Positions 4,179-10,749 of a stretch of 10,749 bases of DNA are shown here, in pieces. The notes beneath the pieces were generated by a model. It did no database searches and was not told the DNA's origin. It was given only the letters and a program-made list of their open reading frames with translations. The stretch is from NCBI GenBank assembly GCA_020725385.1, contig DYFC01000012.1:1-10749 (forward strand), written 5' to 3'. The position numbers and the translations under genes were made by a program. This DNA comes from Nitrospira japonica. Lineage in GTDB: Bacteria > Nitrospirota > Thermodesulfovibrionia > Thermodesulfovibrionales > SM23-35. Every line of letters starts with the position of its first letter. Positions within the stretch are counted from its first letter, which is position 1.

Positions 4179-4192
4179 ATAGTCATATAGCA

Positions 4193-4314
4193 GCCTAAAT
4201 CCATTTAAAGAATGGATGCGGGGGAACCAAATTTTGGGGCGTATTTACCTGACTACCGGTAATAGGGAACTTCCAGTCCCGAGCCCGTCAGCTAACCCCG
4301 TAGGCATTTGGAAG
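4193..4314 (+). ncRNA. cyclic di-AMP riboswitch (ydaO/yuaA class)
   Basis: Hallmark segments in the expected order: GCCTAAATCC...GGATGCGGGGGAACCA...TGGGGCGTAT...ATAGGG...CCCGAGCCCGTCAGCTAACCCCGTAGGC. Pseudoknot CTTCCA (4270-4275) with TGGAAG (4309-4314). Located upstream of a K+ transporter, a typical target. Confidence 0.93.
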
Positions 4315-4332
4315 GGCATTGATGAGGATAAG

Positions 4333-4388: not shown

Positions 4389-6203
4389 ATGATTAATCAC
4401 GAGTCTCCTGTAAAGGGCATTATTAAATCCCTTGGTCTTGTTTTCGGTGATATAGGAACAAGCCCGATTTATACCCTAACAGTAATTTTTCTTCTTACCA
4501 GACCTTCAGAAAGCCATATTATTGGTGTCTTATCTCTTATTATCTGGACACTTGTAATACTTGTGTTTGTTGAATATGCATGGCTTGCTATGAGTCTTGG
4601 TAAAAAAGGTGAAGGTGGTACAATTGTTCTTAAAGAAATACTTATTCCACTTTTAAAGAAAGGGAGACAGGTATCTTTCATAACCCTCCTGTCATATATT
4701 GGCATATCCCTTTTGATTGGAGATGGTGTGATAACTCCTGCGATCAGCATACTCAGTGCGGTAGAAGGTTTATTACTTGTACCCGGACTTGAAAAAACTG
4801 ACCAGACAATACTTATTATTATTGCAGGACTTATTGCAATAGCACTTTTTTCTATTCAGAGAAAAGGCACTGAAAAAGTTGCAGGGACATTTGGACCTTT
4901 AATGCTCCTGTGGTTTTTATCTCTTACCACTTCCGGAATCCTTTCTATAATTAAATTCCCGATTGTATTGAAGGCAGTAAATCCATTTTATGCATTGCAA
5001 TTTCTATATGAAAACAGCATTGTTGGTTTCTTTGTCCTTTCAGAAGTTACCCTTTGTGCTACCGGAGGTGAAGCCTTATATGCAGATATGGGACATTTAG
5101 GCCGTAAGCCAATTCTTAGGGCATGGTATCTTGTTTTTGTTGCTCTTATAATTAATTATCTTGGACAGGGAGCTTATATGATTGAATATCCTGATGCACA
5201 TAATGTTCTTTTCGAGATGATTTTTCATCAATCTCCAGCGATGTATATCCCTTTCCTTATACTCAGTATTATCGCTACTATTATTGCTTCACAGGCTATG
5301 ATCAGCGGTATGTTTTCAATTGTATATCAGGGAATTACGACCCATATTATGCCAATGTTCAAAATTGACTTTACTTCTGCGGAATTAAGGTCTCAAATCT
5401 ATATAGGAATTGTAAATTGGTTTTTACTCTTTTCTGTATTGTTTGTAATGTATGAATTCAAAGAATCGAACAAACTTGCAACAGCTTATGGACTTGCTGT
5501 AACAGGAACAATGACAATTACAGGCATTATGATGACATGGATATTCTTACTTAGGAAAAAGTATCACCTTTGCTTTATTTCATTAATAGTAACTATAGTA
5601 GATATTATATATTTGCTTTCAAACAGCTATAAGATACCTCACGGTGGATACTGGTCAATAATTATCGGTTTGGTACCCTTTTTAACAATAATATTATATA
5701 CCAAAGGCCAGAAAAGGCTTTACACTAAATTGAAAGCAGTGCCGTTGTCAGAATTTTTAGAAAAATATAATTCTTTTTATAAAGCAAATAACAAAATTAC
5801 TGGCACAGCACTCTTTTTTATCAAAGACCCGAATGAGATACCTCCTTTTATGATCCGTAGCATGTTTGTGAATAAAATTCTTTATGAAAACAATATTATC
5901 GTTACGATTATAAAACGTGACGACCCGTTTGGAGTTACAGGTTTTTTTAAAGAAGACCTTGCCCCGGGTTTGAGGGTTTTTGAGATTCAGACAGGTTATA
6001 TGGAGATGCCTGACATTGAAGAGATATTAAAGGAAGCAGGTATAGAAGAGAATACAATCTTTTACGGTCTTGAGGATATAGTAACATCCAATCCTATCTG
6101 GAAAATTTTTTCAATTATTAAGAGGCTGAATCCAGCATTTGTGCAGTTTTATAAGTTACCTTCACACAAATTACACGGAGTAATGACAAGAGTTGAGATA
6201 TGA
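4389..6203 (+). CDS. kup: KUP/HAK/KT family potassium uptake transporter
   Basis: 604 aa. 'LGLVFGDIGTSPIYT', 'GEGG', 'GDGVITPAISILSAVEG', 'TGGEALYADMGH', 'IIASQAMISG', 'QIYI', 'AYGLAV'. SD GAGG at 4377-4380. Confidence 0.96.
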   Translation: MINHESPVKGIIKSLGLVFGDIGTSPIYTLTVIFLLTRPSESHIIGVLSLIIWTLVILVFVEYAWLAMSLGKKGEGGTIVLKEILIPLLKKGRQVSFITLLSYIGISLLIGDGVITPAISILSAVEGLLLVPGLEKTDQTILIIIAGLIAIALFSIQRKGTEKVAGTFGPLMLLWFLSLTTSGILSIIKFPIVLKAVNPFYALQFLYENSIVGFFVLSEVTLCATGGEALYADMGHLGRKPILRAWYLVFVALIINYLGQGAYMIEYPDAHNVLFEMIFHQSPAMYIPFLILSIIATIIASQAMISGMFSIVYQGITTHIMPMFKIDFTSAELRSQIYIGIVNWFLLFSVLFVMYEFKESNKLATAYGLAVTGTMTITGIMMTWIFLLRKKYHLCFISLIVTIVDIIYLLSNSYKIPHGGYWSIIIGLVPFLTIILYTKGQKRLYTKLKAVPLSEFLEKYNSFYKANNKITGTALFFIKDPNEIPPFMIRSMFVNKILYENNIIVTIIKRDDPFGVTGFFKEDLAPGLRVFEIQTGYMEMPDIEEILKEAGIEENTIFYGLEDIVTSNPIWKIFSIIKRLNPAFVQFYKLPSHKLHGVMTRVEI

Positions 6204-9565: not shown

Positions 9566-10108
9566 ATGTCCGGAATTGCAATATGGATTACAGGATTGCC
9601 GGGTAGCGGAAAAAGCACAGTGGCAGAGGAGTTTATTAAAGCTTATCCCGGGTTTATGATTCTCAGGATGGATGCTTTTAGAAAATTTGTAACACCCGAG
9701 CCAGCATATACGGATACTGAAAGAAATTTAGTTTATAGGGCATTGATTTATTTTGCAAAAGTTTTAACCGGCATAGGGTACAATGTTATTATTGATGCTA
9801 CAGGCAATCGAAGGCTCTGGCGTGAGCTTGCAAGAAAGGAAATCAGCAAATTCATTGAAGTCTATTTAAGATGTCCTCTGGAAATTTGTGCCGATAGAGA
9901 GAAAAAAAGACTTGAAACAAAAGACGCCCCAAAGGATATATATAAAAAGGGTAAAGAAGGGTGGCCTGTGCCGGGAATTTCTGTGCCATATGAAGAGCCT
10001 TTAAATCCTGAAATTATTGCCGATACTGACAAAGAATCTCTATCAGAAATAGTAAATAAAATAAGTAGAACTCTTACAGAAAAATGGGGATTAAGAGGTA
10101 AGTTGTAA
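9566..10108 (+). CDS. Adenylyl-sulfate (APS) kinase-like P-loop kinase
   Basis: 'AIWITGLPGSGKSTVA', 'FIEVYLRCPLEIC..R', 'PGISVPYEEPLNPEI' are CysC-like, but the canonical LDGDNVR segment is replaced by 'LRMDAFR'. Confidence 0.75.
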   Translation: MSGIAIWITGLPGSGKSTVAEEFIKAYPGFMILRMDAFRKFVTPEPAYTDTERNLVYRALIYFAKVLTGIGYNVIIDATGNRRLWRELARKEISKFIEVYLRCPLEICADREKKRLETKDAPKDIYKKGKEGWPVPGISVPYEEPLNPEIIADTDKESLSEIVNKISRTLTEKWGLRGKL

Positions 10109-10152
10109 GTATTTCTCTATTTTACTTTTTCTACTAATCTCGCCTCTCGCAC

Positions 10153-10182
10153 CTGCCGTGTTTATCCCTTTTTAATCAGGTC
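10153..10182. repeat. Degenerate partial CRISPR repeat plus 5 flanking nt; direct repeat of 10651-10680
   Basis: CTGCCGTGTTTATCCCTTTTTAATCAGGTC versus CTGCCGTCGCAATCCCTTTTTAATCAGGTC: 26/30 identical, with 4 contiguous mismatches. Confidence 0.9.
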
Positions 10183-10222
10183 GGCTAAAGCAGTGAGTTA
10201 GACACAAGTGAATTAGTGAGTT
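10183..10222. repeat. Left-flank octamer repeats of the four-helix-bundle cassette
   Basis: AGTGAGTT (10192-10199), AGTGAATT (10207-10214), AGTGAGTT (10215-10222). These are inverted relative to the right-flank units. Confidence 0.7.
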
Positions 10223-10589
10223 AGAAAGACATCTTCTGGCCAATCATTTTATTAAGCATCTTCATGATTTCTTCTATTGTAGACTCTAAAAGTGTATATT
10301 CTTCTTTATTAATCCAACCTACATCTCGACTTTTTATAAGCCAGTTTAAAGTCTCTGTAGTTGACCCTCTTGCAACGATCAAGTAATGAATGTATTCCTT
10401 TCCCTGTCTTCTGCCAAATCCTTCAGCTATATTTGCACTGATTGAACCACATGATCTGAGTAACTGATCTATTACTACTTTTGTTGCTTGAGTTTTTGGA
10501 AATAACTCTACAATTTTAATAACATCAATGAATAGTTTGTGTGCCTTTTGCCATACAATAAGGTCTTTAAAACTACGGATTCTTTCCAT
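10221..10589 (-). CDS. Four helix bundle protein (23S rRNA intervening-sequence protein / S23-like family, Avd-related fold)
   Basis: 122 aa. 'SFKDLIVWQKAH', 'FPK', 'QLLRSCGSISANIAEGFGR', 'YIHYLIVARGSTTET', 'KMLNKMI' are family signature motifs. Confidence 0.93.
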   Translation of the reverse strand: MERIRSFKDLIVWQKAHKLFIDVIKIVELFPKTQATKVVIDQLLRSCGSISANIAEGFGRRQGKEYIHYLIVARGSTTETLNWLIKSRDVGWINKEEYTLLESTIEEIMKMLNKMIGQKMSF

Positions 10590-10604
10590 TTGCCTTTTCT
10601 TTTT

Positions 10605-10653
10605 CCCTAATTCCCTAAATCACTAATTTCTAATTCACTTCAGCCAAAGGCTG
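10605..10653. repeat. Right-flank octamer repeats and small hairpin of the four-helix-bundle cassette
   Basis: CCCTAATT, CCCTAAAT, CACTAATT, TCTAATT, CACT in tandem (10605-10639), then the hairpin CAGCC-AAA-GGCTG (10641-10653). Confidence 0.7.
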
Positions 10654-10655
10654 CC

Positions 10656-10749
10656 GTCGCAATCCCTTTTTAATCAGGTCTAATTTCCTACGTTAAAATA
10701 CAAACAGATTAATTATATTAATTATGTCGCAATCCCTTTTTAATCAGGT
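10656..10749 (-). CRISPR. End of a CRISPR array (about 36-nt repeat, about 34-nt spacer), continuing beyond the window; probably the trailer end of a type III-associated array
   Basis: GTCGCAATCCCTTTTTAATCAGGT is identical at 10656 and 10726 (70-nt period; the second copy is cut by the window edge). The inferred full repeat on the minus strand is GTAGGAAATTAGACCTGATTAAAAAGGGATTGCGAC, with the GT start and GGGATTGCGAC end seen in type III-type repeats. The repeat boundary at 10691, the orientation and the type are inferred. No cas genes are in the window. Confidence 0.8.

Follow-up and report, generated by a model that had tools for sequence, protein, structure and literature searches.

The contig DYFC01000012.1 of Nitrospira japonica, 10,749 nucleotides (nt) long and called the window here, ends within a CRISPR array (an array of short palindromic repeats that are clustered and regularly interspaced). 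The last full repeat in it is followed, in the place of a spacer, by an intact gene for a four-helix-bundle (FHB) protein of 122 amino acids (aa). This gene sits in a cassette that begins with a GC hairpin, has two arms of short units that can pair with each other, and is closed by the 3' part of a repeat. The case is genuine, it recurs, and its parts follow a regular structure: about 35 further loci with the same layout were found in related genomes, in metagenome-assembled genomes (MAGs) labelled as other phyla and in metagenomes, with several repeat families. We consider it probable that the element is an FHB cassette of the intervening-sequence (IVS) type, as in 23S rRNA, living in a CRISPR array and its precursor CRISPR RNA (pre-crRNA); the steps of expression and processing are ones that we infer from its anatomy. 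Below, C4 is the window as a contig of the genome G000, other G, C and L numbers stand for genomes, contigs and loci, and "sense" in C4 means the minus strand.

An FHB gene cassette in the place of a spacer

C4 represents an entire contig of G000 (71 contigs, 2.46 Mb). The features at its end, all on the minus strand and given in the sense order, are the following.

10726..10749, minus strand: CRISPR repeat copy, 24 nt of the sense-3' part, cut by the contig end, identical to 10656-10679
10692..10725, minus strand: ordinary 34-nt spacer between two repeat copies
10656..10691, minus strand: last full 36-nt repeat, sense GTAGGAAATTAGACCTGATTAAAAAGGGATTGCGAC, with the tag at 10656-10663
10641..10655, minus strand: GC hairpin directly after the tag, sense GG-CAGCC-TTT-GGCTG, with the stem-loop CAGCC-TTT-GGCTG at 10641-10653
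10590..10640, minus strand: 5' arm of tandem octamer-like units (AGTGAATTAG and similar), including a weak ribosome-binding site, AAGG, before the ATG
10221..10589, minus strand: FHB gene, 122 aa, PF05635/TIGR02436
10183..10220, minus strand: 3' arm of inverted octamer copies (inverted repeats I2, I3 and I5), ending in GCTTTAGCCG, which pairs with the 5' arm
10158..10182, minus strand: 25-nt partial repeat, sense-3' part only, with the small repeat stem retained and the tag degenerated to ATAAACAC
10153..10157, minus strand: GGCAG (sense), common to the hairpin start after the full repeat

The original prediction, made from the letters of the window, had placed an intact 122-aa gene between the full repeat at 10656-10691 and a degenerate repeat at 10158-10182, with about 473 nt where a spacer would be expected. 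These coordinates were confirmed, and so was the gap of 473 nt from the partial to the full repeat. In the sense direction, a cut repeat, a spacer and the full repeat are followed by 66 nt, the ATG and open reading frame (ORF), 38 nt and the partial repeat, and another 49 nt separate the latter from the end of a convergent kinase-like gene. The 8-nt CRISPR RNA (crRNA) tag ATTGCGAC forms the sense-3' end of the full repeat (10656-10663), and a Cas6 cut would be expected between 10664 and 10663. Compared with the full repeat, the partial repeat has four mismatches, all within the tag (ATTGCGAC changed to ATAAACAC), and an exact 19-mer common to the two gave 2 matches against 0.00 expected (200 shuffles). 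A repeat segment of about 25 nt flanks the cassette on both sides and could be a duplication or a recombination site. On the plus strand, CTGCC lies beyond both repeat copies, at 10153-57 and at 10651-55. The GGCAG at 10153..10157 is possibly a remnant of the 5' end of a second cassette; such remnants are clear at the position after the partial repeat in C29, L016 and L044. Beyond the 5 shared nt, the likeness of 10109-10157 to the C4 5' arm was not above chance (182 of 1000 shuffles were as good).

That the host is a CRISPR array is shown by the window, with its full repeat, its cut copy and its partial copy, together with public DNA runs, in which the repeat is joined to other spacers. Repeats beyond the window, on which the original prediction had made its case depend, were found with other spacers in these runs, where the C4 repeat was about 25-137 times deeper than its flanks. 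One run (X1) contained a repeat-35-nt-repeat contig, and run X7 had loose ends with other spacers. In run X2, a single contig of 1022 nt covers 9662-10683; the source sample may be either X1 or X2. The order of kinase end, partial repeat, gene and full repeat, and their junctions, are unchanged in a strain of X7 that differs by about 6%. In relatives, the C4-type repeat family forms long arrays, with up to 17 identical copies in L134. The Rfam scan gave no match on the repeats or the cassette and no rRNA family in the window. Relatives with the neighbouring kinase gene had no array at that place, and the synteny comparison was uninformative.

The FHB protein matched PF05635 (E 2.6e-32; 111.7 bits against a cut-off of 33.8; positions 1-106 of 106 covered) and TIGR02436 (E 9.1e-32; 109.5 bits against a cut-off of 24). 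An AlphaFold2 model (predicted local distance difference test score, pLDDT, 94.1) has helices at 11-27, 34-59, 63-89 and 95-121 and superposes on the crystal entries 2GSC (template modeling [TM] scores 0.86/0.93) and 2RLD (TM 0.80/0.90), which have five chains each. The family and fold named in the original prediction were thereby borne out. The model also superposes on Avd, the accessory protein of diversity-generating retroelements (DGRs), with TM scores of 0.80/0.90, a root mean square deviation of 1.7 A and 12% identity (4DWL_D). With a profile of 10 array FHBs, a PDB search returned only 2RLD and 2GSC at E<=0.01, leaving Avd unmatched, and no PHROGs family matched two array FHBs (C4 and C29). 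The C4 cassette is without any further ORF.

Two structures that the original prediction had not described are the inverted octamer arrays and the GC hairpin adjacent to the tag. The ORF is enclosed by inverted arrays of AGTGA(A/G)TTAG-like units, and these arms pair in the minimum-free-energy fold. The arm duplex reached -28.4 kcal/mol, compared with -18.1 +/- 3.3 for shuffled arms, and 3 of 500 shuffles were as good. Arms also paired better than shuffled arms in most other cassettes. The cassette thus shares with intervening sequences an ORF within inverted ends that pair as a stem, and it lies between CRISPR repeats and not in a 23S rRNA helix. On the minus strand, a scan from the repeat to the ATG found no sigma-70-like promoter match, although the promoters of this phylum may escape the sigma-70 consensus, and no terminator-like site, in agreement with the original prediction.

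Comparison of strain sequences shows the C4 ORF to be under purifying selection: among the 17 differences listed for the ORF, 13 were synonymous and 4 non-synonymous (16 further differences lay over the whole compared stretch, outside the listed 17). In run X4, one low-depth contig parts from the window right at the partial repeat and runs on into a different, heptamer-type arm, a hint of cassette exchange at this place.

Orientation, junctions and tag-adjacent hairpin of array copies

When 160 loci were oriented by their gene, 21 had sense repeat tags and 1 had a single antisense tag that looks like chance. Every embedded copy that could be oriented was sense to its array. The tag gave the direction of the arrays, together with C29, G006 and G070, where the cas-leader side is upstream of the cassettes. 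The minus strand had been named as the direction of array transcription in the original prediction, and this stood: the tag ATTGCGAC is canonical, and wherever the cas-leader side of a homologous array is visible, the gene runs away from the leader.

In arrays of the ATTGCGAC type, the cassette begins immediately after the tag with a GC hairpin. A tag-adjacent hairpin was found at 22 of 104 unique junctions; as the junctions were read, these comprise about 18 of the 26 at cassettes and about 4 of the 78 at ordinary spacers. The stems were compared sequence by sequence (27 rows listed, 4 of them read as ordinary spacers), and about 12 different stem sequences keep the pairing, including CAGCC, CTGCC, CACGCC, CCGCC and GCGGC as well as CGGC, GCACAC, CCAGCAC, CTGC and CAGC. 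The hairpin was absent from 6 same-clade relatives outside arrays. Since it is specific to array copies and covaries, it appears to act as a structure.

At the 3' junction, the repeat that follows the cassette is reduced to about 25 nt in 8 loci besides C4, and it matches the local repeat variant. Among 17 repeat variants, a 3-bp stem just 5' of GATTGCGAC covaries (C-G to U-A in 7 sequences) and falls within the approximately 25 nt that the partial repeat retains. Many Cas6 enzymes use a repeat stem plus the cut site. The partial repeat would therefore retain what many such enzymes use. Other repeats follow other boundaries: with a 37-nt repeat ending in AACTGAAAG, the cassette begins inside the tag (L020); with a 30-nt repeat ending in GTTGAAAC, beside a I-B cas1, cassettes are bounded by the 5' 24 nt of the repeat (L026 and L039); and a 32-nt repeat ending in GAGATTGAAAC hosts a cassette in L168. 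Most cassettes stand at the trailer end of the array, and ordinary units are found on both sides in L017/L159, L019, L038 and L048.

Gene-less "solo stems" or broken genes were also seen in arrays (L013, L018, L019, L038 and L152). L038 (G006:C1, about 1.5203 Mb) lies in the only complete genome that has an embedded cassette. Its FHB gene at the trailer end contains an in-frame TAA, so some array copies are decaying. In gene-less cassettes of two types (L013, G009:C2; L026, G022:C83), a terminator-like hairpin (A-run, TGCACCT...AGGTGCA, T-run) replaces the ORF. Two genomes of different families (L017 and L019) agree in what follows their terminal repeat, TCACAAGCAA.CGC... and then CGGAAGT-type heptamers, a third cassette type at array ends.

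The layout recurs in other genomes and metagenomes

A small mobile cassette with CRISPR repeats as its landing site was one of the possibilities raised in the original prediction, together with a search for repeat-flanked PF05635 genes elsewhere. The search gave plentiful examples, so that the C4 case is not a one-off, and the many recurrences fit such a cassette. Embedded loci were counted by scans for periodic repeats and tags and by reading the junctions, part of the classification being made by eye, because automatic direct-repeat and cassette-like classifiers missed cases and gave false positives.

In the sample of the order, 85 of 201 genomes had an FHB match at E<=1e-10. All 10 other matches at least 45% identical to the C4 protein had the same layout and stood within CRISPR arrays or at their ends, and they came from 9 genomes (G009, G174, G087, G045, G153, G012, G132, G169 with two in tandem, and G000 with the C29 copy). 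At 33-41% identity, 4 of 21 loci were array-embedded (G022, G067, G006 and G070), and 1 more was between cas2 and cas1 (G038). The sample of the phylum (401 genomes, E<=1e-28) gave 8 matches in 7 genomes, of which 6 were array-embedded, 1 was between cas2 and cas1, and 1 was unrelated to CRISPR; among the embedded copies, that of G496 comes from another order and that of G272 from another class.

A collection of genome contigs was searched with a 10-sequence alignment, and the best 80 of 588 relatives were read. Among these 80, 17 loci had at least 45% identity, and repeats flanked 7 of them (L044, L047, L048, L050, L051, L057 and L075); L055 was masked, and none of the 63 loci below 45% was embedded. 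The repeat-flanked MAGs were labelled Deltaproteobacteria, delta proteobacterium, Acidobacteria, Nitrospira, "bacterium" and Thermodesulfovibrionia, the contig of the last being the same as G153:C84. Among the best 80 of 591 relatives on metagenome contigs, 15 were repeat-flanked; seven of them were read directly (including L152), and eight were flagged by tag scans, with the junctions seen for some. No FHB relative was found in viral contigs.

In the wider family, FHB cassettes were also found directly behind or between tRNA genes (L053, L154, L156, L167, L197 and L201). Taken with the rRNA and CRISPR hosts, these sites suggest a preference for processed stable-RNA transcripts.

A second array of the same genome carries a related cassette

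G000 holds 8 PF05635 matches, nearly all within their own inverted arrays of 7-8-nt units. One of them is in an array on C29, whose repeat (GAGAGAAAATAAGCCTTGATGAATAAAGGACTGCGAC) differs from that of C4. The C29 locus starts with cas6, an FHB cassette, a cmr1-like gene, a RAMP gene, csx11, a cmr4-like gene and three ORFs without assignment, and it continues with a 310-aa reverse transcriptase (RT), cas1, cas2, a leader and six repeats. The sixth repeat is followed by a hairpin (CTGCC-TTT-GGCAG), octamers, an FHB gene for 118 aa, octamers in inverted orientation and a partial repeat of 24-25 nt. Beyond this lie a spacer of 41 nt, another full repeat and approximately the first 70 nt of a second cassette. 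The array FHB gene is oriented away from the leader. This fixes the sense of the C29 repeat family, in keeping with the canonical ending of the tag. The array FHBs of C4 and C29 are mutual best paralogues, with 48.7% identity and 121 bits, compared with at most 72 bits for five others. Elsewhere in G000, FHB genes are located between hsdS and hsdR, beside a methyltransferase gene, between beta-propeller genes, between a kinase gene and response regulator genes and after a HEAT-repeat gene. The original prediction had suggested a look for cas genes. Such loci are present in G000 on C29, C59 and C56, with RT-cas1-cas2 on C29, but none can be tied to the C4 array.

Several further observations were made at these loci. 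The region C29:40000-59999 (L011) is type III-D-like with csx11, its stand-alone, group-II-type RT of 310 aa is immediately upstream of cas1-cas2, and the FHB cassette inserted between cas6 and cmr1 has its own heptamer arms. The C29 RT matches group II intron-type models and adjoins cas1. A SAM-I/IV riboswitch (RF01725, 52.4 bits) lies at L008:662-778 on the minus strand, a few hundred nt past the remnant of the second C29 cassette. On C59 (L042), a second adaptation module consists of cas1, cas2, an RNase H-like ORF and cas6, and its neighbours are a 1000-aa protein without assignment and a sigma-54 activator to which a Csm6/CARF domain is fused. A non-CRISPR FHB cassette on C27 (L005) is located between 29-nt direct repeats. 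These take in some 3'-arm-like sequence, and the whole resembles the remnant of a tandem cassette.

Array copies cluster in the FHB tree and occupy different CRISPR types

A quick maximum-likelihood tree was made of 115 FHBs (123 columns; L075 was dropped as a duplicate of L017), and array labels were assigned from the junctions. With many forks of the tree unresolved, the "array" label required 6 changes; shuffled labels required 18.7 on average, and none of 500 shuffles went as low. A clade of 16 (Shimodaira-Hasegawa-like approximate likelihood ratio test, SH-aLRT, 91) contains 13 array copies plus L045, L046 and L055, and a second clade (99) contains 4 array copies and 2 others. In a by-eye comparison, the sequence of the arm unit appeared to track the protein clade. 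L020, in an array, and L052, a non-array copy from Omnitrophota, are sisters, and both have AGTCTAA units. This fits arms and gene traveling as one unit.

The host systems differ. A type III-D system with RT-cas1-cas2 hosts the C29 cassette; III-A systems with csm6, cas10, csm2-5 and cas6 host those of G006 and L050, with no adjacent cas1 or RT; cas1 only is present at L048, and a I-B cas1b at G070. An RT is therefore adjacent in 1 of the 5 contexts examined, and the link to RT is not general. At L048, the repeat that abuts the cassette has the ending GCGAC, and the four preceding array repeats and the 3' partial repeat have GAGAC.

A proposed route from pre-crRNA to protein

The unit reads [repeat tag] - GC hairpin - 5' arm - ORF - 3' arm - [3' part of repeat], and it takes the place of one spacer and of the next repeat's first 11-12 nt. 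The leader promoter would transcribe the array into the cassette, and a Cas6 cut in the upstream full repeat would give a cassette RNA that begins with the 8-nt tag. Since the 25-nt partial repeat keeps the small stem and the tag, the downstream unit could still be processed there. The cassette would be released by RNase III at the long stem, by Cas6 at the partial repeat or by both; by analogy with rRNA intervening sequences, the long flanking stem is likely an RNase III substrate. The ORF could then be translated. Expression from pre-crRNA and release by Cas6, as the original prediction had suggested, would fit the anatomy, with a full repeat upstream and a partial repeat with stem and tag downstream. 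Our best guess for the tag-adjacent hairpin is that with it the tagged RNA escapes loading and trimming as a guide. We also guess that the FHB protein binds the repeat-stem RNA of its own cassette, because the type of repeat unit appeared by eye to follow the protein clade. Judging from the junctions, cassettes may move between arrays by recombination of their repeat-derived 3' end with resident repeats. The repeat segment on both sides, the partial repeat of the local variant and the GCGAC/GAGAC endings at L048 are consistent with such a spread. A theme common to these sites, as we read them, is that the cassettes ride on transcripts that are cut up anyway, namely, arrays, tRNA, rRNA and operons.

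Relation to known systems

The closest known design is the intervening sequence of 23S rRNA. That of Coxiella measures 428 nt, contains an S23p ORF and is excised from the precursor by RNase III, according to the part of the report that treats it; there, the protein is described as probably not made and the ORF as decaying (PMC4990558). Such an element resembles the C4 cassette in having a PF05635-family ORF within stem-forming inverted ends, inside a highly transcribed precursor that is cut anyway, and the same part of that report regards it as a selfish element spread by horizontal transfer (PMC4990558). In the cassette, by contrast, the host RNA is pre-crRNA, the ends abut a repeat tag on one side and a partial repeat on the other, tandem arrays of 7-8-nt units make up the arms, and an extra GC hairpin follows the tag. 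The C4 ORF also looks selected, unlike the decaying ORF described in that part of the Coxiella report (PMC4990558).

A link of the family to cas loci has been known as well. Zhang, Doak and Ye reported in 2013 that 18 23S_rRNA_IVP genes lie in cas loci, which are of the types I-B, I-E, II-A and III-B (PMC3936711), and Altae-Tran et al. listed the family in 2023 among new adaptation-module associations (PMC10910872), in the passages of these papers that concern it. The genes described there are of the same family, in several CRISPR types, one of them between cmr3 and cmr2 (PMC3936711, PMC10910872). These passages concern genes among cas genes and contain no array-internal gene, repeat-bounded cassette, arms or hairpin (PMC3936711, PMC10910872). 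A full-text literature search, which did not extend to subscription journals and supplements, found no description of an array-embedded FHB cassette, its arms or its hairpin, only the coarse association with cas loci. The novelty is best filed as the CRISPR array as a host of an IVS-type FHB cassette; the IVS design and the cas-locus link of the family were already known.

PF05635 is treated as Avd-like in the relevant part of a DGR survey (PMC10053308), and DGR Avd (PDB 4DWL and 8UBE) has the same four-helix-bundle fold as the C4 protein. Against a relation to DGRs stand the low identity to Avd and the missing profile match. A Pfam scan of 11 window ORFs found no RT; template and variable repeats were not searched for.

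Non-spacer inserts are also known at the edges of CRISPR loci. In crRNA-like regulatory mini-arrays and CreTA, degenerate or partial repeats surround the insert, which is a spacer-sized guide or a small toxin RNA acting via Cas effectors. In contrast, the C4 insert is a protein-coding cassette of 473 nt with its own stem. Insertion sequences interrupt CRISPR arrays with foreign DNA. Unlike them, the cassette encodes no transposase (a search in trans was not made), its junctions are fixed at the repeat tag, the cassettes are strictly sense, and the downstream repeat is truncated to a constant length.

Weighing the explanations

A number of observations weigh against an IVS-type cassette that lives in pre-crRNA. 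The whole C4 cassette folds no more stably than shuffles (z -0.88), and the duplex test was confined to the arms for this reason; it alone was significant. With fixed 75-nt arm windows, no duplex signal was seen in L014, L015, L017, L045 and some others. Partial repeats of 12-14 nt (L015 and L038) are without the repeat stem, so that a retained Cas6 site is not true of all cassettes. In L013, a terminator-like hairpin lies upstream of an intact FHB cassette, which fits simple read-through badly. Close relatives with about 60% identity and the same octamers (L045, L046, L141, L143, L144 and L146) stand between ordinary genes with no CRISPR, which means that the cassette does not need an array. 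The bias toward the trailer end is explained equally well by an old feature inherited with the array, and further down L048 other repeats also end in GCGAC, which speaks against the recombination point. The relatives in the counts are not independent. The window contains one full repeat only, the remainder of the array being outside the G000 assembly, and co-transcription, cuts by Cas6 or RNase III, and translation are all steps that we infer.

An assembly artefact at the contig end, or a one-off insertion, might be suspected from a contig that ends in a repeat and has a single full repeat. This is almost certainly wrong and already contradicted, given the X2 contig across 9662-10683, the same junctions in the divergent X7 strain and the approximately 35 further loci. 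A domesticated CRISPR accessory gene is a more serious alternative, which we still regard as unlikely. Here, the FHB would serve immunity (crRNA handling, type III signalling or adaptation), and the array would be a regulated site of expression. Purifying selection on the ORF, the strictly sense orientation, the restriction of the hairpin module to array contexts, FHBs within cas operons (between cas6 and cmr1 in C29 and between cas2 and cas1 in G038), the location of 3 of the 8 G000 copies in CRISPR-Cas loci, and the associations reported in the cited parts of the two surveys (18 genes in cas loci, PMC3936711; adaptation modules, PMC10910872) would all suit it. It is harder to reconcile with members of the same clade outside CRISPR, between ordinary genes and beside tRNA genes, with the common broken or gene-less array copies (the TAA of L038; the solo stems L013, L018, L019, L038 and L152), with hosts that span III-A, III-D and I-B arrays with different repeats, and with a C4-type copy in only 9 of the 201 genomes of the order.

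The gene might instead be self-sufficient, having landed in the array with its own promoter in the AT-rich 5' arm and being independent of pre-crRNA and Cas6. The many non-CRISPR sites of its relatives, the L013 hairpin and promoter types that may escape the sigma-70 scan leave some room for this, yet we hold it to be quite improbable, as C4 has no promoter-like match from the repeat to the ATG, all orientable embedded copies are sense, which such a gene would not need, and cassettes elsewhere are in operons or behind tRNA genes, co-directional with their neighbours where examined. Very improbable, in our judgment, is a retroelement-like cassette in which an Avd-like FHB and a CRISPR-linked RT spread into arrays through an RNA intermediate. 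The fold likeness to Avd (4DWL), the Avd-like treatment of PF05635 in the cited part of the DGR survey (PMC10053308) and the RT-cas1-cas2 module adjoining the C29 array point in its direction. The RT and Avd connection drawn in the original prediction was not supported as a general one, and the likeness to Avd is one of fold only. The other four contexts have no RT beside the array (G006 and L050 are III-A without RT, L048 has cas1 only, and G070 is I-B), Avd is matched by no profile and at 12% identity, and the cassettes stand at the trailer end, not the leader end. A full repeat upstream with a 3' partial repeat downstream would also be unlike an integrated copy of a Cas6-cut RNA.

The IVS-type cassette in pre-crRNA thus remains the reading that we favour. 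A bolder version of it, which we regard as doubtful, is that arrays of many bacteria contain dedicated protein-coding cassettes that are transcribed from the leader and matured into a Cas6-tagged mRNA, with a hairpin that bars effector loading and an Avd-like product that acts on CRISPR function or on the spread of the cassette. If true, this would be the first messenger RNA matured by Cas6 within an array and the first gene family specialised for arrays.

CRISPR arrays are treated as pure repeat-spacer memory, and here a protein gene is in the place of a spacer, in a layout that spans several repeat families, the CRISPR types III-A, III-D and I-B, and MAGs labelled as several phyla. If the IVS reading holds, the puzzle of the rRNA intervening-sequence ORF would gain a second, experimentally easier host RNA, maturation of an mRNA by Cas6 or RNase III would become directly testable, and a natural design for protein expression from an array would be at hand. 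Array finders with an upper limit on spacer length will break up or cut short arrays of this kind, and they will wrongly label the cassette gene an ordinary neighbour.

Other features of the window and genome

A c-di-AMP riboswitch (RF00379, 90.3 bits) is located at 4182-4321 of the window, on the plus strand, just upstream of a gene for a Kup potassium transporter (4389-6203). Dozens of contig ends of G000 share a few sequences (e.g., ...TGCCTCATTTAAAAATCTAAATGAAAT... and ...AATAAATTTTTGAGCAATGTCTGCATTATT...), which look like multi-copy mobile elements that break the assembly.

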